A stretch of 64,000 nucleotides of DNA from a virus, in IMG/VR virus record IMGVR_UViG_3300031417_000380; one strand, 5' to 3'. Below, in pieces: positions 47,907 to 63,355 of this stretch (positions within the stretch are counted from its first letter, which is position 1; each line of letters begins with the position of its first letter). A program made the position numbers and the translations under genes. The notes beneath the pieces were generated by a model, which saw only the letters and a list, made by a program, of their open reading frames with translations, did no database searches and had not been told where the DNA came from.

Positions 47907-48223
47907 CCGCTCACTCACCGTGCCCGCACACGCCCGCTCACCGTGTGACCGCTACCGAAGAACTTTCACCATGGCTCGCTTACCCGCTACCGAAGAGCTT
48001 TCGACTCTGATCGAAGAGCTTCTTTGAGTAAAGAACTTTCGACTACCAACAACTCTTTCAAAGAGTTGCTCGCCGAAGAGCCGCTCACCGAGGCCACAGC
48101 TGGAGAGCGAGGAAAGAACTTTCACTATCCCATCGATGCTCAAGCTCACGCTTGCTCAACAGATAGGACACCACCCAGCCTACGGCTTACTCACACTGTA
48201 CTCTCCTGAAGCAGTCGCGCCCA

Positions 48224-48262
48224 CCCGCAACGGCTTGCGGCCACCTTCGCTGCGCTCGAGGC
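48224..48262. repeat. 39-bp direct repeat, copy 3 of 3
   Basis: Identical to copy 2. Confidence 0.9.
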
Positions 48263-49364
48263 TACTGCTCACCACAGCATCAGGCTCACTCGAAGAAACT
48301 TCCGAAGAGCTCTATCCCGCTCACCGTCACAACTCTTTCAAAGAAGCTTACTCTCGCCATGAGTCAGGCGATCAGCGCTCACCAAAGAACTTTCACACAG
48401 GCAAGACTCACCGGTCAATCGAACTCAGCTCTCATCGTCACCACCAGCAAACACCCGGAGCGCACCACCAGCAGGCCGGTCACCAACTTACTCAAGACTT
48501 CACCCAACGGCTCTCACGAGCGGTCACTCACGGCCTGCTCTACGCCGACCACCACTCACTCATCACCGGTCTTCGGCGCTGCCCACCACACAAGGCCATA
48601 AGCTCACTCTACCGGTTTCGCAAGGCCAGTCCATAGGCGACTACTTTCTCACTCACTTGCCCAACAGTATTCCACCTATAGACCGGTTACACATTGAAGA
48701 AGACTACGAGCAGGCTTTCCACACTTCACACACCACAGCGACGCTCAACACCATGGTCGGTCACCGTTCACCAGGTTACACTCACCGACTGCTCACACAG
48801 CCCGAGCTCAGAGGCCTCTACTCACTGAGCAAAAAAAAGAAAGGGCTCTCCCCGGCGGCTACTCACTGACCGCTTTCTCAGACCTCTCGCTAACTCAGCT
48901 TACTCTTCTCTCACTCTCGACTACTTACTCTTTCTCTCGGATCACCAGACTACTCACCATAACCACCGGATACCTCTTCCCACCACCAGTAGTAAGTCAC
49001 CATTCTCACTTCCAGCAGGCTTCTTCCGCTGAGTGCTCAACGTGACCCACACCGCCGTTCCGTACCATGGCTCCACGTAACCAACAGCTCGTGACCATAC
49101 TCATGCCCGTACCATAAGACAGCGCACCTCCAGCGCATCCAGTAGCCGGCTCCGCCGGTAGTAAGGCACCTCATGCTCCGCATGAGCCGGCGGAGCCGGC
49201 CCCGTACTCACCTCCAGCAGTATCCTTCCGAGCACAGGACTCACCGAGCAGGCTCACCTCCAGTGAGTCAACTACGGCGTCAGCATGCTCACAGCTTGCA
49301 ACAACCGTAGGAAGTTTCTCCGTCGCCACGGATTGCTCTCCTTCGTAGCCCAGGCTACGCTCTC

Positions 49365-49750
49365 GTGTGTGACACACACTCACGCTTCGCGCTCCGCCTC
49401 CGTCCGGTCCTCCACCCCGAGCGACTCACCCCGCCGCGTACCGCCGGCGAGCTCGCGCTCTTGGTGTCACACCGACTACGCTTCACGCTACGCTGTAGGT
49501 GTCACGCACTCCGCTTCGTCCGGCTCACGCCGGTTCACTCAACGTGACACACACTCCCCACCATCCAGTAGCGTCACGGTGTCACACACTCACCGGTTGC
49601 CTTTCACCATCGGTCAGCCAGTCGGTGTCACACACTCATTCGTTCCGTAAGCCGGTAGGTGTCACACCGGCCTAGCCCATCTCCAGCGGTGAACGTGACA
49701 CACCATCAAGCAGCTTCGAGCAGGAGCGGCTTCGCCGGAGGTGTCACACC
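49365..49750. repeat. Cluster of 9 GTGTCAC/GTGACAC palindromic sites (iteron- or parS-like)
   Basis: Copies at about 49365, 49463, 49498, 49543, 49578, 49624, 49658, 49694, 49740; best form GGTGTCACACC. Confidence 0.75.
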
Positions 49751-50218
49751 ACTAGCGGGGATAGTGACCGAACCACTGAGAATGAGCTCACCCGGTTACT
49801 CACCTTCAGCGGTAGCCTCACTACTCAAGGAGGGGACTCCAGCCGGCACCTTCAAGAGACTGGAAGCAGTTTCGAGAAGTCCCGGCTGGCCCAGCGTAGC
49901 TGGGAGGAGGCCGAGCTCTGCGAGGCCTCGGCGAGCGTAGCGAGCCCGGTCCCCGGTGGCCGATCCCCGAGCGAAGCGAGGGCTCTTCCCGGCGGAGCGT
50001 AGCGGAGCCGGCTTAACCACCGAGGAGTTCTACGACGAGGATTTCTTACGTAGCTAGAACTCAAGGTAGCTTCTATGGTTCTTTGTCTTCGAGCGTAGCG
50101 AGCAAACGGCTATAGGATACTTTTGGTTGACTTTAGTTGTTTGCAGGCTGCGAGTGAGCTTTTACTATGGGAGTTTCTAGCTACTGATAATCCACTTTCA
50201 AGTGGGATCTTGGCTTCT

Positions 50219-50242
50219 AAAACTGATGCCAAAACTGATGCC
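50219..50242. repeat. 12-bp perfect tandem repeat in the AT-rich segment
   Basis: AAAACTGATGCC x2. Confidence 0.7.
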
Positions 50243-50362
50243 ATCTTCTTCTAGCCATTCTGATATTGTTATGTGAGATCAATGATGTGATGTAGCTTCA
50301 CAGGATATGTGGCTACTTAGCTATCTTGACAACCTTCTAAAAGCTTCTCAAGGGTTCATACA

Positions 50363-53086
50363 GTGGTAGACTTCAGTAAACTTCGAGTACCAGGTGCTAG
50401 TGATTCGACGAGTGAGCAAGCTCACCCGGGCCGTGATGGCGAAGCCAAAGCGGGCGAAGCCGAGGGAGGCCAGGCGAGCCGCGGGCAGGTAGAAGCTTCA
50501 AAAAGCGAGGTCAGGCGAGCCGCGGGCGAGCCACAGCCAGGCGTAAGCGGTCTTCGTTTACGACTTCCTGGAGCAGCCGGAACACCGACACCCATATCTA
50601 CTACTCCTAACGGAGGGGTTGATGGAGGGGTGGGCGTCGGAGGGGATAGTACTTCTACCTATGCCGGTAAACCTTCCGATGCTTCATCTATTACTTCTTC
50701 CGACGAAGGTGACGAAGTCGGTGGAGCCAATTCAACGGTGAGTGAGGCTGGTAATTCCGCCGGTGTTACAGCTGGTGAAAAGGTGAGCGGTGACACATCC
50801 GTTGCTGATGGAGTTACTAAAGCCGGTGTTGCGGGGAGTGAGCGTAACGATTCTTCAGTTGACGGAGACGCTGCTGACGCTTCGGGGGAAGGCTTTAACA
50901 GTGGTGACGGCTCAGCTAGAGCTGTAGGCGAGGACGCTCGAGTCGGTGTCACATCCGGTTCAGCCGGTGTTGGGGGACGGCCCGGGCAGTTTGGTCTTCG
51001 TCTTCCGAAGCCTAGAATCAGCCAGGAGAGCGCTGGCGTGGACGTTGCGGCTCCGTCGATTGATGGGGCATCGGTGGGTGTCACATCCGGCGAGCAGCCG
51101 TTGCTGAACGGTGAGCAGGTGGATCGAGAGGTGGCTTCGGCGTCTCGAGAGAACTCATCTATCTCATCTAAGGTCCCTTCCTCGTCGGTGAGCGTCTCGT
51201 CGTCGGCTCCGATTTCGCCGCTTGAGGCTCCTGAGGAGCTCGTTTCGGCAGCGGTGAATCCGATGTTGGAGGCCTTCGGCGATGAAGACGAAGAGTACTT
51301 TGATGAGCTTGAGCCGCTTGAAGAGGGTGAGCTTTTCGAGGAGGCTGAGGCCGAGTATGAAGAGTATGCTGAGGCCACGAACCCGCTTCTTGAGGATGAT
51401 GAAGACGAGCTGGTGACTCCAGCCGGTCTTGCTCAGCAGTTGGGAATCAGAGGTGGTCTGTCTGAGTTCGCTGATGATGAGCTGGATGAGGACGCTGGAG
51501 AGACTTTCACTGGGTTCGATTCACAGCTTCAGGAACTGCTTGGAGACGATGATGACGAGCCGGTGACTCCGGTGAGCTCTCCAATAGAGCATCCTCCGGT
51601 CACCTTTGCAGAGCCTTCGAAGCCGGCGAGTGACGCTACGGTTAGGCCTGAGCCGGCTATTCGTAAGCCGCTTCCTCGGCCTGGCGAGAGGTCCTCCGCA
51701 GTTGCGCCGGCCGCGAGTGAGCCGGCTTCTTCGACGGGGAAGCCGCTGGCCCCGGCGCCGTTGTGGAACGCATCGACTCCACCTCGCCGTGTGGAGCTTG
51801 AGGAAGCTGAGCTTGAGGCGGAGGCCGGTGAGCGGAAAGAGCATCTTCGTGCTCGCGCTCAGGAAGAGGCTCAACAGAAAGAGTACTCGAGCGATTTCAT
51901 CGGGTCACCGACGAAGGTGGTTCGTGTGAGCGGTGAGCAGCCGCGGGAGCGGAAGCGGTTCGAGAAGCCGAAGCCTGGTGGTAAGCTGAGCTCCGCTGAG
52001 CTTGACTTTTATAAGAACCTGAGCACTGTACGTGAGCAGTACTCGGACGGCATGGTCATGAGCGAGCTGATCACCGGTAAGCGTGCTCGGAAGGCTAATG
52101 AGCAGGAGCGTAAGCAGCGTCGGGATGAGCTTGAGCGTACCTTAGATGGACAGAACTTGTTCCGCTCGGGGCCGTCGTTTAAGCTGGACACGAAGACGGT
52201 GGATACGCTCATGTTCCTTGCTCTGTTCCGTTACGCTACCCATAGCCACATTGCTCGTATGTTCGGTGAGACTCCGTTGACCACTCTTCGTCGTCTTCGG
52301 AAGATTCGAGCAGCCGGTCTTGTGGCTTCGAAGAAGCTCTATAGTCAGCATGATCTCTGGTTCCTGACCGAGGCCGGTGTGGTGGTTTCCGGTTACGATG
52401 TTCGCCACATTACTGAGGCTCGCTTGACTCCTTCTATGTTCCCTCACCAGTTCACTGTGAATCACGTGGCGGCAAATCTTATGGGTGGGCAGTTGAACGT
52501 GCTCGGGCTTGGTGACTTCCCGAGCAATCGTCGTGTGGATGTGAAGGGGAATCCTCGGCTTGGTGAGGAGCTTACCTCGGAGCTTGAGATCCTTTCGAGC
52601 TTCTCGAAGATCAAGCTTTTTGAGCAGAGCTCTTCGTTCCGTCCTAAGCTTATGGGGATGCGTGATCGTGATTTCCAGCTTTGGAGTGAGCTCGAGAATC
52701 GTGCTGAGACGCCGACGCCGGAGATGAGCTACGGTAATGAGTGGATGTTCACTCTGTTCCCACCGTTGGCCGTTGGGGTGGCCTATCACGTACCGGACCT
52801 AGTGGTGAAACGTCAGCGTGGAGCGGACGGTGCTCCTAAGAGCATCGCTGTAGAGATCGAGATCAGCAATAAGCCGACTGCCTCCTATGAGAAAACTTTG
52901 CGGGCTTACGCTGAAGACAAGTTGATTTTCGGCCAGGTGATCTGGGTCTGTAAGACTATTGGGCCCGCCAAGAAGCTTGAGAAGGTCGGCAAGGAGCTTG
53001 GCCTGATCCAGTCTGGACGGTTAAAGATCGTTCCGATTTGGACGAACGATGGAGTCTTTAAGGGGCGTGACCTGTGGATGATCTAA
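50363..53086 (+). CDS. Replication-relaxation (Replic_Relax) family protein with a long disordered acidic N-terminal region
   Basis: C-terminal wHTH (FLALFRYATHSHIARMF...RRLRKIRAAGLV...WFLTEAG), HQFTVNHV, and PD-(D/E)xK-type PDLVV...IAVEIEISNK. Confidence 0.75.
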   Translation: MVDFSKLRVPGASDSTSEQAHPGRDGEAKAGEAEGGQASRGQVEASKSEVRRAAGEPQPGVSGLRLRLPGAAGTPTPISTTPNGGVDGGVGVGGDSTSTYAGKPSDASSITSSDEGDEVGGANSTVSEAGNSAGVTAGEKVSGDTSVADGVTKAGVAGSERNDSSVDGDAADASGEGFNSGDGSARAVGEDARVGVTSGSAGVGGRPGQFGLRLPKPRISQESAGVDVAAPSIDGASVGVTSGEQPLLNGEQVDREVASASRENSSISSKVPSSSVSVSSSAPISPLEAPEELVSAAVNPMLEAFGDEDEEYFDELEPLEEGELFEEAEAEYEEYAEATNPLLEDDEDELVTPAGLAQQLGIRGGLSEFADDELDEDAGETFTGFDSQLQELLGDDDDEPVTPVSSPIEHPPVTFAEPSKPASDATVRPEPAIRKPLPRPGERSSAVAPAASEPASSTGKPLAPAPLWNASTPPRRVELEEAELEAEAGERKEHLRARAQEEAQQKEYSSDFIGSPTKVVRVSGEQPRERKRFEKPKPGGKLSSAELDFYKNLSTVREQYSDGMVMSELITGKRARKANEQERKQRRDELERTLDGQNLFRSGPSFKLDTKTVDTLMFLALFRYATHSHIARMFGETPLTTLRRLRKIRAAGLVASKKLYSQHDLWFLTEAGVVVSGYDVRHITEARLTPSMFPHQFTVNHVAANLMGGQLNVLGLGDFPSNRRVDVKGNPRLGEELTSELEILSSFSKIKLFEQSSSFRPKLMGMRDRDFQLWSELENRAETPTPEMSYGNEWMFTLFPPLAVGVAYHVPDLVVKRQRGADGAPKSIAVEIEISNKPTASYEKTLRAYAEDKLIFGQVIWVCKTIGPAKKLEKVGKELGLIQSGRLKIVPIWTNDGVFKGRDLWMI

Positions 53087-54702
53087 GCTACGGCGGTGTA
53101 AGAACAGCCGATGATATTTCGCTTGGAAGAACTTTCCCGGAACGAGCTGGTGACGTGGTAGATAGCGACAACCCATTCTTTGATGATGACGATGAAGACG
53201 AGCTAGCCCCAGCTGCTCTCCCGTCGTTTGGTCGTGAGGCGTCACCGAAGTCTCCAGAGCTGTTCGATGATGAGGACGATTTCGAGCTACCTAGTATCTC
53301 CATGGAGCACATGGACACTGGTATGGCCGGTCATCAGCAGCATGCTCCGGCAGAAGACGCTGCTTTCTCTCCGATCGATGATGAGCTTGAGCGCGAGAAC
53401 CCGTTCATGAGTATTACTGATGACGCTATCGGTGAACTCCTCGAGGCGGTTAACGGCGGATTCGATGAGCCTGAGGAGCAGCCTGGGCCGACTCCGATCC
53501 ACGACATAACTGGACAACTTGACTCGCTCGGCAATCTGGACGATCCGGAGGGCCTCAGCGGCCACTACGCTGAGCTCAGCGGCGGCCTGACCGACGACGA
53601 TGACGAAGATGATGAGTACGCTGAGACGTTCATCGACCTGGACAAGGTCATTACCTTGGCCATTGAGCATAAGGCTTCGGATATTCACATCTATCCTGAG
53701 GATGATGTGGCTTTCACTATCCTCGGTGAGATCTACCGTTTTGATGAGTTCGGCGTGATCGACGCGAACATGACTACGAAGCTTCAGCAGCGTATTATCT
53801 CGAACGTGCTCGAGCAGGACTTTGTAGAGAACCTCGAGCTTGACACCTCTTACGTTGTAGAGACCGGTAAGTATAAGGGGCGTCGTCTTCGTCTTTCTGT
53901 CGGTAAGGAAGGCGGCGCGGTAACCATGACGTTCCGTGTGATCGCTGATGTTATGCCGACTCCTGAGGCCATCGGTGTGCCTGGTATTGTTCAGAGCTGG
54001 TTTAAGCTTCCGGCTGGAATGATCCTGGTGAACGGTCCCACCGGTTCTGGTAAGTCAACCACCTTGAGCTCGCTTATGCAGGTGATCCAGTTCTCGAAGC
54101 GTAAGAAGGTCATTACGCTTGAGAAGCCGGTAGAGTTCAAGTACGGGAATCGCAAGCCTGGGCAGAAGGCTTTCTTCGCTCAGCGTGAGGTTGGGCGTGA
54201 TACTCGTTCGTTCAAGAACGGCATCGTTTCGGCCATGCGTCAGGCACCGAATATTATCTTGGTTGGTGAGGTCCGCTTTAAAGATGAGATCGATGAGCTT
54301 TTAGCCGCTGCGGAGACCGGTCACTTGGCCATCTCTACGCTGCACACTGTCTCCTGTGCTCAGACGATTAACCGTATCCGTTCTATGTACGATGGTGACG
54401 ATCAGAAGCGAGTACTGGCGACTATCGCTGACAATCTTCGTGGCATGGTGACGCAGGCGCTGGTGCCGTCTCCGGATGGGACAAAGCGTGTGGCTGTTTT
54501 TGAGACGCTTCAGATTACTCGTGAGTTGAAGCCGATGTTGCTTGAGGGTGACGCTCAGGGTATCCGTCGGTACATGGAAGACCGCGGCATAACTATGGAG
54601 CATGAGCTTGTGAAGGCTGCTCGCGCCGGAGTTGTGGATCTTGAAGAAGCTCGGAACAAAGCTCCGGATCCGTTGTACTTTGATGAGCTGTACGAGGCTT
54701 GA
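53074..54702 (+). CDS. pilT: PilT/PilU-family type IV pilus ATPase with ~185-aa acidic N-terminal extension
   Basis: ASDIHI, Walker A GPTGSGKST, QREVGRDT, AMRQAPNIILVGEVR, His box ETGHLAISTLH. Confidence 0.85.
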   Translation: MDDLSYGGVRTADDISLGRTFPERAGDVVDSDNPFFDDDDEDELAPAALPSFGREASPKSPELFDDEDDFELPSISMEHMDTGMAGHQQHAPAEDAAFSPIDDELERENPFMSITDDAIGELLEAVNGGFDEPEEQPGPTPIHDITGQLDSLGNLDDPEGLSGHYAELSGGLTDDDDEDDEYAETFIDLDKVITLAIEHKASDIHIYPEDDVAFTILGEIYRFDEFGVIDANMTTKLQQRIISNVLEQDFVENLELDTSYVVETGKYKGRRLRLSVGKEGGAVTMTFRVIADVMPTPEAIGVPGIVQSWFKLPAGMILVNGPTGSGKSTTLSSLMQVIQFSKRKKVITLEKPVEFKYGNRKPGQKAFFAQREVGRDTRSFKNGIVSAMRQAPNIILVGEVRFKDEIDELLAAAETGHLAISTLHTVSCAQTINRIRSMYDGDDQKRVLATIADNLRGMVTQALVPSPDGTKRVAVFETLQITRELKPMLLEGDAQGIRRYMEDRGITMEHELVKAARAGVVDLEEARNKAPDPLYFDELYEA

Positions 54703-54902
54703 GCCTCAGCTAAGAGGTTAGAAAGAATTAGGCGTGAGGTTGTACGCTTCGGGTAAGACGAACTGTTAGAATCGCTTCTATCAGCGGTGGCCTGGCCATC
54801 GCTTCTCCTGCGGCAGCAACGGATGCTGTGCCAAGCTACTTCGCCGTTAGCTTAAGCTAGACGGTAGAATAGCCTAACCTTTAGAGTAACGGAGACAGAC
54901 CT

Positions 54903-57203
54903 GTGGCGTCGAGATTTCATGTAAACCCGGAGACCGGCGAGGCGAGCAAGTGCAACGCCACCGCTGATAACTGTCCGTTCGGAAGCTCTGAAGAGCACTT
55001 CTCGAACTACGAAGCCGCAGCTGCCGCGGCTGAGGAGCTTCTCTCTGACCAGTTTACGGTCGGTGTTCTTAAGAAGGAGCGAGTAGAGGTGACTCGTGAG
55101 GCCACTATCGAGCTCATTCAGGAGCTTCACGACGCCTCAGAGACCTATAATCAAACTGGAGAAGAGAGTGCTCTTTCAGATGAGGAGTACGACGCTAAGA
55201 TCGACTTCCTCCAGGCTATTAAGGATTCTGGTAAGCACGAGGATCTCTTCGTAGAAGGATCTGTCGGCGCCGGCATGCTTGAGAGTGACTTCGCTCTTGG
55301 GAATGAACTCACCGGTGATGTGGTAGAGCACAAGATCCCGATGCTCTCACTTGCTAAGGCTAAGAAAGAACCGGAGCTTTTCGCCTATCTGGCCAAGGCT
55401 CGTCGCGGTGGTGCTAAGGACTTCCGTCTTCAGGCTAAACTAGACGGGCTTGCGCTTTCCGCCCGTTACACCGATGGTAAGCTTACTCGTCTTGCTACTC
55501 GAGGTGAAGGTACTCACGGTGAAGATGCGACGTATCTGGTAAAGGACCCGAACGTCAAGATCAAGGGACTTGAGCTTTCAATCTCTGACAAGGATTCGCT
55601 CGAAGTGCGTGGTGAGCTCTTCTTTACGAACGCTCAGTTCCAGGCTGTCGATGACGCTCGTTTCAAAGCTACCGGCACTCGCTTTAACGTGCCACGTAAC
55701 GCTGCGTCTGGGCTTATGAAGGCTGCAGCCGGTGGCGTTGGATATCCGGTGGAGTTCACCTTTGCGGCTTACTCTGTGATTAAGAACGATGAGCCTGCTG
55801 GGATGGAGGAGCTCAAGGACCTCGGCTTCCGCTCGGTGGATGAGCTCACCGATGAGGCCACTCCTGGCCTTGACCTTTCGAACTTCGAGAGCGATGAGCA
55901 GGTGATGGAAGCTGTTCACGCTTTCGGAACCGCTCGTGAGGGCTTCGACTTCCCGACCGACGGTGTGGTGATCAAGCCGACGAACGAGGCTGAGATGCTT
56001 GCCTCTATGGGTTACACCTCGCATCACCCGGCTTCGCAGATCGCCTGGAAGTACCCGGCTGAGTGGGCCATCACCGAGGTGGAGGGTATCGACATGACCG
56101 TCGGAGCTTCCGGTAAGGTGACCCCGATCGCTCGTATCAAGCCGGTGCTCCTCGCCGGCTCCACCATCAGCAACGCTTCACTTCACAACTTTAACCTGGT
56201 CCACACTAAGGGCATCCGTATCGGCTCAGTGGTGAAGATCGAAAAGGCTAACGACATCATTCCTCAGGTGGTGGCTGTGATTTCGAGTCCGAAGGATTCG
56301 ACTGACCTGCCGGTGCCGAAGGATTGCCCATCTTGTGGAACTGTTCTTGAGTTTGAGCAGGAAGAGGGCGTCTGGCCTCCGAGAACTATGCGTTGCCCGA
56401 ACGTTGATTGCGAGTCTCGAAACTTCTTTGCTCTTAAGATGGCTGTCGGTAAGGCATACATGGACATTGACGGCCTGAGCGAGGTTTCACTAGACCACCT
56501 CCACGCCACCGGTCGAGTAAAGAACATCGCTGATCTCTACACGCTTGAGCTTGAAGAATTGGCTGCATCCCCGCTTGGCGAAAGTCAAAACGGTAACGCT
56601 CGTCGTCTTGGAGAGAAGCGCGCTCAGAACATCATCGATCACATTGAGTTGTCAAAGACTCGTCCGCTGGCTAAAATGCTTCCGGCCATCTCTATTGGAG
56701 GTATGGGTACCGGCTCATCAAAGCGGCTTGAAAAGCGCTTCGGTGACATCGATGGGATCCTTGCAGCTCCGGAAGCTGAGATTGCGGAGATCAGCGGTCT
56801 CGGGCCAATCTCAGCTAAGAAGATCCACGAGGGGCTTAAGCTTCGCCGGCCTACAATTGATCGTATGCGTGAGTACGGCGTAACCTTCGGCAAAGTTGAG
56901 AAGAGTGAAGCTACAGCTGCTACTGCGGCTGACGCCACCGGCGAACTCGGTTCGTCAACATCTGTTGATCTTTCGGGAAAGTCGTTCGCTATCTCAGGAG
57001 CTGTTCCTAGTGGTTTTAAGAACCGCGGCGAGTGGGTGGACTATGTCGAGGCTTCCGGTGGTGAGTTCCATTCGAGTCCTAAGGCTCACACTACCTATAT
57101 GATCGGCGATCCGGCGGAAGGCTCCTCGAAGATTAAGGCAGCTACTAAGCACGGACTTACATTCTTGACTCCGGAAGGTTTCATGAGTCAGTTTGTAAAG
57201 TAA
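54903..57203 (+). CDS. ligA: NAD-dependent DNA ligase with an extra N-terminal H-C-C-H module
   Basis: KLDG adenylation motif, EVRGE, PRNAASG, DGVVIK, IAWKY, OB fold, CPSC...CPNVDC zinc finger, HhH, C-terminal BRCT (GKSFAISG). Confidence 0.93.
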   Translation: MASRFHVNPETGEASKCNATADNCPFGSSEEHFSNYEAAAAAAEELLSDQFTVGVLKKERVEVTREATIELIQELHDASETYNQTGEESALSDEEYDAKIDFLQAIKDSGKHEDLFVEGSVGAGMLESDFALGNELTGDVVEHKIPMLSLAKAKKEPELFAYLAKARRGGAKDFRLQAKLDGLALSARYTDGKLTRLATRGEGTHGEDATYLVKDPNVKIKGLELSISDKDSLEVRGELFFTNAQFQAVDDARFKATGTRFNVPRNAASGLMKAAAGGVGYPVEFTFAAYSVIKNDEPAGMEELKDLGFRSVDELTDEATPGLDLSNFESDEQVMEAVHAFGTAREGFDFPTDGVVIKPTNEAEMLASMGYTSHHPASQIAWKYPAEWAITEVEGIDMTVGASGKVTPIARIKPVLLAGSTISNASLHNFNLVHTKGIRIGSVVKIEKANDIIPQVVAVISSPKDSTDLPVPKDCPSCGTVLEFEQEEGVWPPRTMRCPNVDCESRNFFALKMAVGKAYMDIDGLSEVSLDHLHATGRVKNIADLYTLELEELAASPLGESQNGNARRLGEKRAQNIIDHIELSKTRPLAKMLPAISIGGMGTGSSKRLEKRFGDIDGILAAPEAEIAEISGLGPISAKKIHEGLKLRRPTIDRMREYGVTFGKVEKSEATAATAADATGELGSSTSVDLSGKSFAISGAVPSGFKNRGEWVDYVEASGGEFHSSPKAHTTYMIGDPAEGSSKIKAATKHGLTFLTPEGFMSQFVK

Positions 57204-57217
57204 GTCGATTCACTCCA

Positions 57218-57255
57218 CTAAAGGCGCGATACGAGTTTTTGTATCGCGCCTTTAG
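57218..57255 (+). terminator. Intrinsic terminator-like hairpin after ligA
   Basis: 15-bp perfect stem CTAAAGGCGCGATAC/GTATCGCGCCTTTAG. Confidence 0.7.
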
Positions 57256-57386
57256 ACTTTGCTAAACTACATTCCTTTCGGTAGTATACCGGCATCGTTG
57301 ATAGTCGTTTTGTATCGGATACGCAATATGCGGGTTTTCGGTATCTGAAGTTAGAAAAGGCTTCAAGCGACTTCTTAGGAGATCCA

Positions 57387-58892
57387 GTGGCCGTAGCGCG
57401 TTATCACATCACCCCGAACGGGCCGAAGCTTTGCTCAGCATCAGTGCGAAGCTGTCCCTACGGCGACCACTTTGACAGCAATCGAGACGCTCGTCAGAAG
57501 TTTCGTGAGTCTGAACTTTCAGCAGAACAGCTTTATCGTGAGAATCAGCCGGCTTCAAAGTATCTTAAGTTCGGTGACGACCGTTCTACGACGAAAGTAG
57601 TTCGTTCAGATAATTGGGGCGCTGGAATTGCTGATCTTATCGATGAGCACATTGAGCAGAACTCTGTAAAGCCTGAGCAAATCGAATTCCTCTTCTACTG
57701 GGATGAGAATTCCCCTGACGGTGACCCCACTAAAACTCGTCGCTACATCTTTGAGGCTGTATCACGGCTTGACTCCACCATGGGTAAGTTCACGAACGTC
57801 TACCGCTTTGCCTGGTGGAATCCAAGTGACAAGGCTGCTCAGGACGCTATTGACTTCGTCTACGCTGATGAGAAAGGCCGTGACAGCCGTTGGGCTCGAG
57901 TGCCGGACAGCATGAAGTGGGAAGCCGCTCTAGGAGACGATCTCCCAGAGACCGGAGCTGTTCGTACTGACCAGATGGGTAACTACACGAAGCTTGTAGA
58001 GCTTCAGGCTCAGAACCGTCAGAATTACCGTGAGGTGCTGAACAAGCCTAACTTGCTCGATACTAAATCTCTTGCTTGGAAGCTTCGGGATCCTGCGCTC
58101 GAGGCTATCGCTCTTCGCGAAGATGCTATGGCGGGGCCGCGACCGGATGAGCTCAAGTCAGCTTATCTCTACGATCGAAACCTAGAGCGCAAGGCTCAGA
58201 ATGTAGTACGGGCTATCCGAGCTACAGAGACGAACCTTATCGGTGCTTACAATGCGTACGATCGTGGCATCGGTTTCTACAACCTGGACAACGATCGACG
58301 TACTGTGGTGGATGAAGACCTTTCAACTACTTTCGTCCGAGGTCGTAATTTACACCAGCTTGGGCTTGAGTCAGAACGTTGGATCACCGGCACGTGGCGT
58401 GGTGACGCTGACCGCGATGGAAACGAGATGGGAAGCCAGGCTCGCTTTAATCGTGTTGCGGACTCTAGCGATAAGGGTATCCCGTTTGAGAGCCCCATGT
58501 CCTTCTGGACTGCTAACACTCCTGATGGAGCTCGTTGGGAGCTTGGGATGGACGTTCGTTCACCTGAAGCTGGCTCTAACCGTGTCTCTTACTACGAAGC
58601 GTCGAATCCGAACGTACCGACAGATAAAGCCACTCCGGTAAACGCTGTAGACGGATTTGCAGCTATGCGCGATGCGATGGAAGAGCGTTACGGCGAGAGC
58701 GCTAATTGGTCACCTGCTCTTCAGCGTGACATGAAAGTGCTCGCTGACATAGCTGAGGGTCATAACGCTATGATTCTATCTGCCGAGACTGCTCGTAAGC
58801 GTGTGAAGGCCTACGGCTTCGAGAAGCCTGAAGCACAGGCTAAGCAGGAGCACGCATCGCTCTTCGGCGGCCTGGGGAAGCTTTTCGGGTAA
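57387..58892 (+). CDS. Hypothetical protein (501 aa) with the same N-terminal H-C-C-H module as LigA
   Basis: AGGAG RBS; RYHITPNGPKLCSASVRSCPYGDHF; amphipathic tail LFGGLGKLFG. Confidence 0.82.
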   Translation: MAVARYHITPNGPKLCSASVRSCPYGDHFDSNRDARQKFRESELSAEQLYRENQPASKYLKFGDDRSTTKVVRSDNWGAGIADLIDEHIEQNSVKPEQIEFLFYWDENSPDGDPTKTRRYIFEAVSRLDSTMGKFTNVYRFAWWNPSDKAAQDAIDFVYADEKGRDSRWARVPDSMKWEAALGDDLPETGAVRTDQMGNYTKLVELQAQNRQNYREVLNKPNLLDTKSLAWKLRDPALEAIALREDAMAGPRPDELKSAYLYDRNLERKAQNVVRAIRATETNLIGAYNAYDRGIGFYNLDNDRRTVVDEDLSTTFVRGRNLHQLGLESERWITGTWRGDADRDGNEMGSQARFNRVADSSDKGIPFESPMSFWTANTPDGARWELGMDVRSPEAGSNRVSYYEASNPNVPTDKATPVNAVDGFAAMRDAMEERYGESANWSPALQRDMKVLADIAEGHNAMILSAETARKRVKAYGFEKPEAQAKQEHASLFGGLGKLFG

Positions 58893-59016: not shown

Positions 59017-59061
59017 AAAAAAAGAAGAGGATCACCCCCTACCACAAGGGTGATCCTCTTC
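59017..59061 (-). terminator. Rho-independent terminator of the minus-strand transfer genes
   Basis: 14-bp stem GAAGAGGATCACCC/GGGTGATCCTCTTC followed on the minus strand by a T7 tract. Confidence 0.8.
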
Positions 59062-59093: not shown

Positions 59094-60458
59094 TCACTTC
59101 TTAACATCGTTACTCAGCTTGTACTTCTTGCCGACGATTGCCTTAGCAAGACGGCGTACAGCCGAGTAGATGTCCTGGTGCTGAAGGAGCAAATCCATCT
59201 GCTGAGTGTTAGCAGCGGAAGCCATGATCTTCGGGTTGGACGGAATCGGCGTGATGACCGGGATTCCGAGAGCCGACTGGTAGATCTTCTCACCAGGCAT
59301 GGCCACGTTACCGAGTGACTTGTTCACGACGATACCGATCTTGTTCTTCGAGATACCCATGCCCATCTGTGACTTCGGCTTCGTGACTTCCTGAATCCAG
59401 CGAGTCATGGAGAATACCGAGTTAATCACGATGTCGGTGACGAAGACGATCTGGTCAGCCATCGGGTAAGCAACCTGCTCAAGGAGCGGGTCAAGATAGT
59501 TAACCGAGGTGTCCAGGATGACGTAGTCGTACTTCTTTCGAAGAGCCTGGATGAGCTCGACGTAGAAGTCCGGCGGGGTGTCGTCAGCGTTACGTGGGCG
59601 CTTAGGAGCAAGCATAAGATCACACTTAAGACGAGTACTGTGGATCACAGTCTGGTCAATGTTCTCTGGAGTGATACCTGACGAGCGTAAGTTGATGACG
59701 GTCGGCTTCGAGTTGTTCGTCAAGAAGCCGAGCTGACCATCTCGTACGTCAAGGTCAAGAATAATGACCTTAAGTGGCTCAGTCTCTAGACCTTCACGAA
59801 CTGAGTTCACTGAAGAGTGAGCAAGGAACGTGGCTAGAGAGACCGCCACAGTTGACTTACCGGAGCCACCCTTAGATGAGGTGATGGCTACAACCTGACC
59901 GAGATAATCGCTTTCGCCGGCCTCGTGCTCCTCGAGAGCGATCTGTAGCTGACGCTCAGTCGGGTCTTCGTCGTTAGCCTCTTCATCTGCGGTAGGAAGT
60001 TCGTCCCCGCTTAGGATAGCAGCAGTCTCAAGAAGCGAGGTTTCAGATACAAAGCGAGCTACAGCCGCATCGAGCGATGGACCAGGGCGCTTCGTATCGA
60101 TGAAGTAGTACTTAGGTTCTGATACGCCCTGAGTGTAAGCAGACTGTTCGATGCGTTCACGCATAGCCTCGTTTGACTGAGGCTTGTAGTTGATGATCCC
60201 GACAAGACAGTACGGAGCCATAGCAGCGACTAAGTACTCGAAAGCAGTGTCGCCACCTCGCTCATCGAAGAATCCATCGAGTACTAGAAGCGCCTGGACA
60301 TCGTTATCGATTTCGCCCGATTCAAGACCGGCCCAAAGGTCAGCGATGTTCTCCACGACTGGGGCGAAATCCCAGTCCTGGCGAATCTTGACGAGGAAGT
60401 CATAGACGCGAGGATCACCTACATAGATGGCCTTAGGCATGACGGTGGTAGAAGCCAT
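59094..60458 (-). CDS. CpaE/TadZ-like ParA/MinD-family ATPase with N-terminal receiver-like domain
   Basis: Deviant Walker A SSKGGSGKST, LDLDVRDGQLG, YDYVILDT, IGIVVNK; follows a CpaB gene. Confidence 0.78.
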   Translation of the reverse strand: MASTTVMPKAIYVGDPRVYDFLVKIRQDWDFAPVVENIADLWAGLESGEIDNDVQALLVLDGFFDERGGDTAFEYLVAAMAPYCLVGIINYKPQSNEAMRERIEQSAYTQGVSEPKYYFIDTKRPGPSLDAAVARFVSETSLLETAAILSGDELPTADEEANDEDPTERQLQIALEEHEAGESDYLGQVVAITSSKGGSGKSTVAVSLATFLAHSSVNSVREGLETEPLKVIILDLDVRDGQLGFLTNNSKPTVINLRSSGITPENIDQTVIHSTRLKCDLMLAPKRPRNADDTPPDFYVELIQALRKKYDYVILDTSVNYLDPLLEQVAYPMADQIVFVTDIVINSVFSMTRWIQEVTKPKSQMGMGISKNKIGIVVNKSLGNVAMPGEKIYQSALGIPVITPIPSNPKIMASAANTQQMDLLLQHQDIYSAVRRLAKAIVGKKYKLSNDVKK

Positions 60459-60527
60459 TTCCTGTGATTCCTAACTTACTGGTTGGTTAAGACCGAATAT
60501 CAAAAGGTATCCGATTTATCCAGCGTG

Positions 60528-61673
60528 TCACTCACCGCTGGTGGAGGCACCGTCGGTAGCTTCACCGGTGGGGGTGTCACTAACGTCTGGTGACGAAGTA
60601 TTCGAAGACGAGCTAGAGCTTGTGTCCGAGCCTGAGCTGCTGGTGCCGGTGCTGGACTGGCCGTCCTTGCTTTCGGTGCTCGAGGTGGTGTCGCTGGATG
60701 GGGTCTTACCCTTTACAGAGTCAGACGGAATCTTTGCGTTACCGAGGCCAGCGTTGTCAACCTGAGAGATCGGGCGGCCGAACTTGTCACGCTCAACGTC
60801 AGTGAAGCTGTAGTCAGTAGACTCACGGTAGTCGTTTTTACCATCGCCGTCGAGATCAACCGGCTTGCCGTTCTTGTCGTAGACCGGCTGGAGACCAGGA
60901 GCGATTACACCGTCAAGATCGATGTCATACTTGAACAGACCAGAGTAATCCATGAGACGCGGAGCGGCGTAGTCGTTCTGTCGCGGTGAGAGGACCATGC
61001 GGATGTCAGCCCCGTACTGCTTTACGAGATCCTGAAGCTTAGCAGCGTTAGCAGGGCTCATACCGACGGTGTACTGAGTAGTCTGTCCCTTACGTGCCTC
61101 GTCAGTGTTTACAGCGTTAGCATCACTAGCGTTGGAGAGGTCAGTGGTGGTGTCAAGTGCTAGAACGTTAACGAACGGGTAGAACGCTCCGTTATCAGTA
61201 AGCACCATCATGTCGAAGTAGTATCCACGCTGGATACGTCCACCAACAGCGTTGTCCGCTCCGACGGAGAAGTTCGTAACAACCCAGGTGTCAGGGATAC
61301 CAACTGAAATGTCGGTGAGGCCACCAGCGTTCGATGGGGAGAGGACATCACCTGAAACCATCGGGAACTGAGAGTAAACAACCCCAGACTGTACGGAAGA
61401 AAGGATCTCGTTACGTTCCTTATCACGCTGCTCAGGGGTCATCTTAGGTGACCCACCAGGAGCCGTTCCGGCCGATGTGACCACCGGCGTAAGCATATCC
61501 ATGGTGATTTGAGTTCGCGTTGGGATGTCCTGGTTGAGGACGTAGTACGTCTCAGTCTGGTAAACGCTCTTAAGTACGGTGAGGGTACCCACGAAAACGA
61601 AGACTAGCAACAGAATGATTGCGACCCATAGGACCTTTGTGCTCTTAAAGAGCCCAGTGGCTTTAGTTGCCAT
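60528..61673 (-). CDS. cpaB: CpaB/RcpC-like Flp pilus assembly protein (SAF domain)
   Basis: N-terminal TM, YYVLNQDIPTRTQIT (SAF-like), AVGGRIQRGYYFDMM, VLAL; DLDGDGKND loop; Ser/Thr-rich tail. Confidence 0.68.
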   Translation of the reverse strand: MATKATGLFKSTKVLWVAIILLLVFVFVGTLTVLKSVYQTETYYVLNQDIPTRTQITMDMLTPVVTSAGTAPGGSPKMTPEQRDKERNEILSSVQSGVVYSQFPMVSGDVLSPSNAGGLTDISVGIPDTWVVTNFSVGADNAVGGRIQRGYYFDMMVLTDNGAFYPFVNVLALDTTTDLSNASDANAVNTDEARKGQTTQYTVGMSPANAAKLQDLVKQYGADIRMVLSPRQNDYAAPRLMDYSGLFKYDIDLDGVIAPGLQPVYDKNGKPVDLDGDGKNDYRESTDYSFTDVERDKFGRPISQVDNAGLGNAKIPSDSVKGKTPSSDTTSSTESKDGQSSTGTSSSGSDTSSSSSSNTSSPDVSDTPTGEATDGASTSGE

Positions 61674-61746
61674 TCGTAACGTTCCTTTCGAGGGGATGAT
61701 GTCCCGAGTAATATCAACAACGCTGACGAATCAGCGTTAAACTTCT

Positions 61747-62940
61747 TTACGCTGCGGCAGCAGCCTTTCGCTCTTTCTCAGCTTTAGCAGTTTCAAGAGG
61801 ATTGTTCTTAAACGCCTGATCCCAGTCTTTACGCCAGTTTGAAATCTGTACCGTCGAGTAACGCTTCTGCCAGTCTTTCATAAGACACTCACCGCGTCCA
61901 AGCTCCGTAATGATGCCTTCGAAGCCTTCTTGAGACGGTAGCTGCATATCCTTGACGATGGATATTGCCTCCTTTTCAGAGGAGGCAAACGCAAAGCGTG
62001 TAGCGATGGTTGATTCAATATCTAGCTCTTTGAGGTGCGAGTTATTCTGTGTCACTAGAATAGTGGCCATGTTCTTAGAACGCCCGAGGAGTACCACATC
62101 CTTGACAACCTGAGCTCCAGCAGCTGTCTGAAGGATCGACCACGCCTCGTCAATGACAAGTGTCTTCGGATTCTTAGAGCTGTTGTTGAGCATAAGGCGG
62201 CGCACAAAGTCAGTAAGCAAGAACAAGATACCGGTCGAAAGGCGCGACTTGTTGTCGTTAGAGCCAGGGCTAGGCATCTGCATACCGATGAGCGTAATCA
62301 CCGTGAGGCCTTCATCGATGGAAACTGTATCCATCTTAGCGCCGGACGGAGAGAAGCAGAGGCCAGATAACGGAAGAGCCTGGATCAAATCGAGCGTGGT
62401 GCCTAGGTCGCGTGCTGCGGGGCGTGTTGAGCCTCGCAGTTCCTGCACTACCTTTGCAAGCGACGGCGCAGGCTCACGAATTACGTCCTTGATGATCGGA
62501 GCTAGAGCCGTACGCTGTTCGGGCTGAAGGCCTCCGGTGAAGATGTCGATGAGTGACACAGCTAAGTCAAGCTGCTCACCCGGATCCTTAGACATACGGA
62601 ACGGGTCAAGTACTCCACGCTGCTTGCGTGCGTTGGCAAGGTTCCAGACGTTGAATGATCCGATGTCTTTTTGGAGATTCATAAGCGATAGGAAGTCGCC
62701 CTTTGGGTCGAGCACGATAGTGGTCTTCCCGATAATCGCACTCATAGCTGTAAGAGTCATAGCGAGGTAAGACTTACCTGAGCCAGGAGCACCGGTGATG
62801 ACTGTGCCCGGTGGCTTATCGTTCCAAATCTGAGTGTGCGGATCGAAAAACACCGGCTGAGGAATACCGCCGGATGTCTCTCCTACAAAGAGGGCGGAAC
62901 CGTAGTTATACTCTACCACTGGGTTCTCCTTCGTCTTCAA
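61747..62940 (-). CDS. VirB4/TcpF-like conjugative ATPase, C-terminal (motor) domain only
   Basis: PVFFDP, Walker A GAPGSGKS, LDPKGD, Walker B LVIDEAW, GRSKN..LVTQN, LGRGECLMKD. Confidence 0.8.
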   Translation of the reverse strand: MKTKENPVVEYNYGSALFVGETSGGIPQPVFFDPHTQIWNDKPPGTVITGAPGSGKSYLAMTLTAMSAIIGKTTIVLDPKGDFLSLMNLQKDIGSFNVWNLANARKQRGVLDPFRMSKDPGEQLDLAVSLIDIFTGGLQPEQRTALAPIIKDVIREPAPSLAKVVQELRGSTRPAARDLGTTLDLIQALPLSGLCFSPSGAKMDTVSIDEGLTVITLIGMQMPSPGSNDNKSRLSTGILFLLTDFVRRLMLNNSSKNPKTLVIDEAWSILQTAAGAQVVKDVVLLGRSKNMATILVTQNNSHLKELDIESTIATRFAFASSEKEAISIVKDMQLPSQEGFEGIITELGRGECLMKDWQKRYSTVQISNWRKDWDQAFKNNPLETAKAEKERKAAAAA

Positions 62941-63355
62941 TCATATCAGCTAGCATCTGTAGCTCTCTTCTTCGTGAGATCCAGATCTCACTGTTAACTG
63001 TGTAAACCTCAGCCGGCTTGTGCGGCTTGAGATCTGTCCAAGCCTTGGGTTCACCGACAAACTTAAAAGCAGTTCGAGCAAAATCGAAGAGCGTCTTCCC
63101 TCCGAAGATCGGTCGGATTGCAAACGTTCCAAGTATGGCCGGCGGCAAGATAACGAGAGCGGCGTAGACGATGTTCAGATAGATACCGAAGATCAGAATA
63201 ATCGGCAACGACCAGACTATGTAGAATCCGATAACGTACGAAACCTGCTTGATCGGGATAGGCTTCTTGAACTTGATGTCACCGAGGGCGTACATCTGAA
63301 GCTCTCTCTTAAAGAACCCCGTCATGTTCATTGAAGTGATTTGGTTTCTAGCCAC
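62906..63355 (-). CDS. tcpE: TcpE-family (VirB3-like) conjugal transfer membrane protein
   Basis: FKRELQMYALGDIKFKKPIP, two TM helices, GGKTLFDF...EPK; directly upstream of the VirB4-like gene. Confidence 0.72.
   Translation of the reverse strand: MARNQITSMNMTGFFKRELQMYALGDIKFKKPIPIKQVSYVIGFYIVWSLPIILIFGIYLNIVYAALVILPPAILGTFAIRPIFGGKTLFDFARTAFKFVGEPKAWTDLKPHKPAEVYTVNSEIWISRRRELQMLADMIEDEGEPSGRV

Follow-up and report, generated by a model that had tools for sequence, protein, structure and literature searches.

Two neighboring genes in a 64,000-nucleotide stretch of DNA listed as a virus (IMG/VR record IMGVR_UViG_3300031417_000380; the whole stretch is called the window below) encode unrelated proteins that begin with the same small module: an NAD-dependent DNA ligase (LigA, from 54903) and a 501-amino-acid protein (ORF501, from 57387). 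The module, of about 44 residues, carries His, Cys, Cys and His in this order and is referred to as the H-C-C-H tag. It recurs at the N-termini of a large variety of unrelated, mostly orphan proteins on giant elements that have conjugative cores. From the sequences we tentatively propose, with somewhat less than even confidence, that the tag is an address for proteins that would be made in advance in the donor cell and co-transferred by conjugation. Conjugation systems do pass plasmid proteins to recipients (PMC8406263, PMC11288057), and the principle of one tag on many cargoes is already known. In the libraries and literature searched, which covered few subscription papers, we found no description of the domain itself, of its N-terminal position, of its presumed metal ligands or of its host family.

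The tag on LigA and ORF501

The shared N-terminal module had been recognized in an earlier sequence-only reading of the window, and both N-termini read as quoted there. The ligands are H6, C17, C24 and H32 in LigA (codons at 54918, 54951, 54972 and 54996) and H7, C16, C23 and H28 in ORF501 (codons at 57405, 57432, 57453 and 57468). A six-frame search of the window with the pattern H-x7/12-C-x-A-x3/5-C-P-x3/10-H gives exactly two matches, residues 6–32 of LigA and 7–28 of ORF501, against a mean of 0.02 in triplet shuffles (n = 200). The score of the alignment between the two tags beats those of 20,000 out of 20,000 shuffles, while the bodies behind them are unrelated (best BLASTP E 0.53). DNA similarity between the two tag-coding stretches is not detectable, and therefore a recent duplication as the source of the two tags was rejected.

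Behind its tag LigA is intact: domain Ia with SDEEYD at 92 and KLDG at 179 are followed by OB, C4 zinc finger, HhH and BRCT domains, the set by which an NAD-dependent LigA is recognized (with KxDG as the general form of the adenylation motif). The cargo of ORF501, which has ten homologues, matches no Pfam family, no Atlas entry and no fold (best Z 4.5; model predicted local distance difference test score (pLDDT) 69). An amphipathic helix at its C-terminus (LFGxLGKLFG, window 58850–58892) is conserved in ORF501 and its homologues and resembles the membrane-targeting sequence of MinD; to judge from this helix, the cargo may dock on a membrane.

Sequence, fold and size of the tag family

Single-sequence searches with the tag returned almost nothing, and a profile was needed. 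A 29-row profile (E ≤ 0.001) matches at least 5,416 representatives clustered at 50% identity, and in the best 150 matches the tag lies at residues 1–5 in all. This list and the seed loci favor N-terminal copies by construction, and the unbiased count is therefore that of whole-replicon scans of two near-complete relatives from IMG/VR, G001 (3300045988_177154) and G003 (3300031088_000782): 11 tags were found in each, 22 of 22 being N-terminal. Over all loci the first His lies at residue 2–10 in 194 of 198 distinct tags, and one tag is C-terminal (L062:900–1931, the sole copy at that end). Other scans found six copies in an 89-kb fragment, seven within a 22-kb stretch of one relative, four in locus L009 and 16 in the Clostridiales bin G004. 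Extra partial copies, mostly of the second half of the tag, occur in P0133, P0135, P0136, P0157, P0200 and P0213. The motif is thus neither confined to the two proteins of the window nor scattered over random internal positions. The sequence-only reading had spoken of a portable tag of about 40 residues added to unrelated cargo, and this description holds, in view of the above counts, the 208 unrelated cargo groups into which 330 tagged proteins fall and the repeated gain, loss and swap described below.

In an alignment of 344 tags the four ligands are conserved at 99–100%, G10, A17, P23, G25 and A37 each at more than 90%, and E42 at 77%; the ligand spacing is H-x8/10-C-x6-C-x4/7-H. An AlphaFold model shows a beta hairpin, a loop and a C-terminal helix (pLDDT 86). 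Four invariant Cys/His ligands in a compact predicted fold are what is generally expected of a zinc-binding domain, and on this model the tag is probably a small self-folding domain of that kind. The name zinc knuckle, which the earlier reading had used, is wrong. The retroviral-type CCHC zinc knuckle (PF00098), C-x2-C-x4-H-x4-C, is likewise a small Cys/His metal-binding module, but its ligands differ in order and spacing, and the tag has neither a C-x2-C nor a Pfam match. The tag consensus is near-neutral and lacks the basic face typical of DNA anchors.

Searches of Pfam, PHROGs, NCBIfam and PDB sequences with the tag gave no match, and its matches in the Atlas are unnamed proteins. Fold searches returned weak Kunitz-like rows only (best Z 4.2, root-mean-square deviation 3.1 over 41 residues). 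Resemblances to the N-domain of RNase H1 (one member), to an antifungal protein (E 0.15) and to Kunitz-like folds (Z ≤ 4.2) were rejected because small beta-hairpin/helix shapes are common.

Gain, loss and exchange of the tag

LigA normally begins with domain Ia, as the earlier reading had stated: 99 of the 120 closest homologues start there or nearby and have no tag, and the tag is present on 21. The ligase tree requires five gains or losses of the tag, and strong branch support makes four of these unavoidable; it is a quick tree with long outgroups, in which gain and loss are indistinguishable. Three ligases nested in the tagged clade of the window (P0021, P0022 and P0024) carry the short-loop subtype found on ORF501, and their tags score 112–120 against P0283, a member of the ORF501 family, compared with 67–97 against their sister ligase P0023; therefore, one tag has replaced another. 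Within the ORF501 family the tag has decayed in P0288 and has been deleted in P0289. In G001 and G003 LigA is untagged and is flanked by tagged genes, and tagged genes cluster near ligA (3/11 and 2/11 within 3.5 kb, p = 0.001 and 0.025, respectively). The tagged genes beside an untagged LigA suggest that the tag is captured through local recombination.

Cargo proteins

Tagged proteins have a median length of 281 amino acids, the longest having 766. A minority of the cargo can be named: DNA ligase, RNA ligase, CCA-adding enzyme, Zeta/AAA_33 kinase, ADP-ribosyltransferases and PARP, as well as HNH nucleases, HD hydrolases, DUF3228 and HEAT repeats. The targets of the named cargo are nucleic acids, nucleotides or host proteins. 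A hydrophobic stretch of 19 residues is found in none of 327 tagged proteins, compared with 158 of 683 genes of G001 and G003, and the cargo is accordingly predicted to be soluble. A basic C-terminal tail of the kind that serves type IV secretion systems (T4SS) was not seen on tagged proteins (mean charge +0.08 vs. −0.21). At L091:10001–11086 the tag precedes both a lipoprotein signal and a GmrSD_C/HNH nuclease; in G001 and G003 the core homologues of this protein are untagged and are anchored in the membrane.

Carriers of the tag

The window is part of a 740,336-base metagenome contig (ERZ27247408 k141_1142885). Its G + C content (GC) of 54% and best plasmid matches to Curtobacterium and Streptomyces (30–33% identity) indicate that its host is probably actinobacterial. 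Homologues of the ligase lie on other contigs of 0.4–0.8 Mb, where PilT, CpaE-like, TcpE, VirB4-like and Tad genes are again the neighbors. G001 (325 kb, terminal repeats, 29.5% GC) and G003 (310 kb) have about 45 core genes in common, and the relaxase-like, PilT, CpaE-like, VirB4-like, TcpE and ligase genes of the window have homologues in both. The core of G001 includes VirD4, a split VirB4, three VirB6, FtsK, DnaB and gyrase; one sigma-70 gene and one Replic_Relax gene were found in each of G001 and G003. A VirD4/VirB4 system is encoded by G001, G003 and G004, and VirB4-like and TcpE genes by the window itself. G004, a species-representative Clostridiales bin of GTDB (DUQJ01 contigs), combines its 16 tags with a 942-amino-acid coupling protein that has an insert and with a relaxase-like gene; 300 other genomes of its family have no tag. 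A single divergent tag was found on a 546-kb plasmid of a cultured strain, Curtobacterium pS16 (L005:1483–2415; NZ_CP126255.1, 137639–138571). Several core proteins have MPLP[KR]-like starts and long acidic disordered stretches (G001 231739, 276932, 186674 and 301857; G003 36843, 186393 and 235954), and these starts are possibly a second docking motif.

The carriers are labeled viral by IMG/VR and the ESM Atlas, which raises the explanation that they are huge phages and that the tag is a capsid-targeting propeptide cleaved after its conserved A-[YF]-E. The capsid-targeting sequence (CTS) of phage T4 is a 10-residue cleaved peptide for the virion, N-terminal on Alt and internal proteins, and T4 packs the ADP-ribosyltransferase Alt by means of it. 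Like the tag, it is an N-terminal address on unrelated early-acting cargo including ADP-ribosyltransferases, and the conservation of E42 would suit such a cleavage. The tag is, in contrast, a folded domain by prediction. Of the three virion families searched in G001 and G003, terminase (PF03237), T4-type portal (PF07230) and HK97-type capsid (PF05065), none exceeded the cut-off, which divergent genes could escape, and the two elements hold a conjugative core instead. Inocles, giant elements of Streptococcus, are also cell-associated and plasmid-like (PMC12340149). We regard a phage origin as very improbable; G001 and G003 are probably giant plasmids with conjugative cores misfiled as viruses.

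Inocles have VirB4, VirD4, the Replic_Relax marker InoC, Pol III, gyrase and an S26 peptidase, and an Inocle-positive Streptococcus salivarius has been isolated (PMC12340149). G001, 325 kb long and with repeats at its ends, has the features that mark an Inocle (large size, circularity, VirB4, VirD4 and only one Replic_Relax gene), and likewise has Pol III, gyrase, RecD-like helicase, sigma factor and S26 peptidase genes. Its Replic_Relax protein is about 600 amino acids long with an internal domain, whereas InoC averages 454. G001 thus resembles an Inocle as matched by the published description. The element of the window has Replic_Relax-like, PilT, VirB4-like, TcpE, CpaE-like and LigA homologues in common with G001, but differs from Inocles in its size (740 kb), GC (54%), probably actinobacterial host and Tad pilus. 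A term search of the Inocle preprint (PMC12340149) found no mention of zinc or ligase.

Promoter-like motifs of tagged genes

In G001, GATATA lies 12–55 bases before 8 of the 11 tagged genes and before 21 of 186 other first genes (p = 1e-5); other carriers of GATATA include VirD4, two VirB6, VirB4 and primase. The canonical −10 hexamer precedes 1 of 11 tagged genes in this element, compared with 89 of 174 others. In G003, TAGA[AT]A is found before 7/11 tagged and 21/207 other genes. The GC-richer relatives have TTAGA ahead of 60 of 102 tagged genes, compared with 13 of 243 untagged ones, and with near-duplicates removed TTAGA[AGT]A occurs in 52 of 113 upstream regions from 27 loci (4 further upstream, 8 on the opposite strand and a mean of 1.4 in shuffles). 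The flanks of this motif are unconserved, and the final T of the housekeeping −10 element is missing. The window has it upstream of both ligA (54718) and ORF501 (57351). Gene starts for these tests came from a simple caller, and the motifs were discovered in the same data, which makes the p values optimistic; the enrichment recurs in three separate sets. The motifs of the tagged genes would be read by the element's own sigma factor. Another motif, GATAT(T/A), lies 25–50 bases before the starts of pilus/T4SS genes in the window (59094–63355), in L009 (1428–9869) and in the G003 core, and may represent a second element-specific promoter class.

That tag and upstream motif travel together raises an alternative, in which the unit spread by recombination between neighbors is a capture or expression cassette (promoter, ribosome site and stable folded leader) that confers expression, stability or regulated turnover rather than targeting. 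The clustering of tagged genes near ligA and the dispensability of the tag in orthologues (P0288 and P0289) are consistent with a cassette, as is the tag ahead of the lipoprotein signal in L091, which looks accidental. However, elements of the actinobacterial and the Firmicutes type, whose DNA has diverged, have kept the ligands and hydrophobic core almost unchanged, which points to a binding function, and about half of the tagged genes lack an upstream motif. We consider a cassette a rather improbable explanation.

A proposed model of conjugative co-transfer

The proposed role of the tag as an address for co-transfer can be outlined in four steps. A promoter class specific to the element, probably served by its sigma factor, would direct transcription of the tagged genes, so that the proteins are made in the established donor; the motif is observed in the shared upstream regions, and the sigma factor is its likely reader. 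The H, C, C and H residues would clamp one metal ion and the tag would thereby take up its predicted fold. A single receptor encoded by the element would bind the tag and hand the cargo to the recipient during mating; the likeliest candidate is the type IV machine of conjugation or an adaptor that serves it. In the recipient, to judge from its types, the cargo would seal DNA, repair RNA and modify host proteins, and would in this way help the element to establish itself while its genes are not yet readable. New cargo would be recruited through recombination with neighboring tagged genes, a route to which the observed gain or loss on LigA and the swap of tags point.

This model would account for the combination of promoter and cargo. 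Enzymes of repair and host modification are of most use to an element that has just arrived, yet genes dependent on a sigma factor of its own making are not immediately readable there; production in the donor and joint transfer would resolve the problem. Soluble cargo, a conjugative core and a shared promoter-like motif all fit co-transfer through a T4SS, which the earlier reading had suggested as one possibility. The role of LigA has to be modified from that first suggested, namely recircularization or repair of incoming DNA. The relaxase closes the transferred strand in conjugation, and for this reason LigA is unlikely to be the recirculariser; a better fit is that it seals second-strand nicks or repairs the DNA once it has been attacked.

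Several points weigh against co-transfer. A fold clamped by metal would have to open before it could pass a T4SS, and most of the signals mapped in conjugative substrates lie at the C-terminus or internally (PMC11288057). The tag is absent from the 99 LigA homologues mentioned above and from the LigAs of G001 and G003. In a relaxed scan one lipoprotein signal was found behind a tag (L091), and the C-terminal copy of L062 is a further exception. The coupling protein and relaxase-like gene of the tag-carrier family were not found on the Curtobacterium plasmid pS16. The link between motif and transfer genes is clear only in G001, because in the window and L009 the pilus/T4SS genes have GATAT and the tagged genes TTAGA[AGT]A, and in G003 the TTAGA class also covers RecA, DnaB, ribonucleotide reductase (Nrd) and one VirB6 (7/31 core vs. 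10/183 other genes, p = 0.005), which fits an intracellular DNA-metabolism regulon as well. A complex prediction for the G001 tag and its coupling protein scored 0.00 with a three-row alignment and an uncertain tag fold, and was used neither way.

The main rival is intracellular docking, in which the tag would recruit cargo to one site in the carrier cell (the element DNA, a replication or transcription focus, a scaffold or a host protein) for repair or counter-defense. The portability of the tag and the solubility of the cargo fit docking equally well, a folded zinc domain would need no unfolding, and the cargo largely acts on nucleic acids. The motif shared in G003 with RecA, DnaB and Nrd genes is in line with it, and the few proteins that repeat the helix half of the tag look as if they carried avidity modules. 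Yet it is hard to see one intracellular site that ADP-ribosyltransferases, PARP, the CCA enzyme, HD hydrolases and hundreds of orphan cargoes would share, the near-neutral tag offers no basic face for anchoring to DNA, and in G001 the motif ties the tagged genes to T4SS genes. We consider docking somewhat less likely than co-transfer, though it deserves to be kept in mind.

Conjugative co-transfer can be extended, more speculatively, to a widespread superfamily of such giant elements, to which the Inocles of the human mouth would belong. These elements could run a protein-delivery program with a regulon under their own sigma factor, in which dozens of enzymes, each bearing one metal-binding N-terminal tag recognized by the conjugation machine, are injected into the recipient; we find this extension doubtful at present. 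If it is true, Gram-positive conjugation would have in the tag its first protein-export signal that is modular and can be transplanted. A transfer signal of this kind would show how conjugation chooses its protein cargo in Gram-positive hosts, and would provide a short portable tag for inter-bacterial delivery. The idea is directly testable in the cultured Inocle-positive Streptococcus salivarius, if G001 is truly an Inocle. The tag has no entry in any library searched; it groups thousands of orphan proteins into a single functional class and can therefore serve as a search key for the establishment and counter-defense enzymes of mostly uncultured giant elements.

Comparison with known systems

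The closest parallel is XVIPCD, a terminal domain shared by diverse effectors that binds VirD4 (PMC8740702). Like the tag, XVIPCD of the Xanthomonas T4SS effectors is one conserved terminal domain on diverse cargo that is encoded together with a VirD4-type system. It is, however, about 120 amino acids long, C-terminal and metal-free, and is found on toxins of a chromosomal killing T4SS, whereas the tag is about 44 amino acids long, N-terminal, of the H-C-C-H type and carried by conjugative elements, with VirD4 as a possible partner. T4SS signal domains such as XVIPCD and BID are conserved, terminal and common to diverse soluble proteins, and so is the tag; homology to them was not detected (no Pfam or NCBIfam match, and the weak Kunitz-like fold rows only).

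For the ArdC-N header, at the N-terminus of polyvalent proteins, a role in linking effectors of establishment with the conjugation machinery has been proposed (Iyer et al., 2017, PMC5512222). Header position and cargo types overlap with those of the tag, but polyvalent proteins are large multidomain chains with MPTases, whereas one short tag heads 11–16 or more separate proteins per element, mostly of 150–450 amino acids. No MPTase, ArdC-N or LPD Pfam domain was found among 246 tagged proteins scanned, which sets them apart from polyvalent proteins. The co-transferred proteins of F-type and IncI systems (SSB, PsiB, ParA/B and Sog primase) are likewise plasmid proteins that reach the recipient and aid establishment there (PMC8406263, PMC11288057); a shared modular tag is not known in these systems, and the mapped signals are C-terminal or internal.

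Gene organization of the window

The features of the window are listed in Table 1. The TTAGAAA motif directly after pilT is possibly the ligA promoter or a relic. In a relative (L007) a tagged gene occupies the gap between pilT and ligA, and the block CTAGACGGTAGAATAGC before ligA is conserved there. The inverted repeat behind ligA suggests that ligA and ORF501 are transcribed as separate units.

Table 1. Positions of the tag, its cargo and surrounding features in the window.
Feature	Position	Strand	Remarks
Homologue of the single Replic_Relax (InoC-like) gene of G001 and G003	50363..53086	+	
PilT-type ATPase	53074..54702	+	Conserved core gene
TTAGAAA motif	54718..54724	+	185 nt before ligA, directly after pilT
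CTAGACGGTAGAATAGC block	54857..54873	+	Before ligA; candidate promoter
H-C-C-H tag of LigA, residues 1–45	54903..55037	+	Long-loop subtype, H-x10-C; AlphaFold, pattern, profile
Cargo 1, basic linker followed by intact NAD-dependent DNA ligase	55038..57203	+	Domains Ia, adenylation, OB, C4 zinc finger, HhH, BRCT
14-bp inverted repeat	57219..57254	+	After ligA stop
GTTAGAAA promoter-like motif	57350..57357	+	30–37 nt before ORF501 start; common to tagged genes
H-C-C-H tag of ORF501, residues 1–42	57387..57512	+	Short-loop subtype, H-x8-C
Cargo 2, soluble alpha/beta protein of about 450 amino acids (ORF501 body)	57513..58892	+	Family and fold unmatched
16-pair terminator-like hairpin	59024..59061	.	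Between ORF501 and convergent pilus/T4SS operon
CpaE-like ATPase, CpaB-like protein, VirB4-like AAA_10 ATPase and TcpE	59094..63355	−	GATAT motif, not TTAGA

Beside the relaxase-like gene, the region 48000–50363 combines a turn in cumulative GC skew with a flip in gene orientation and has an origin-like appearance.

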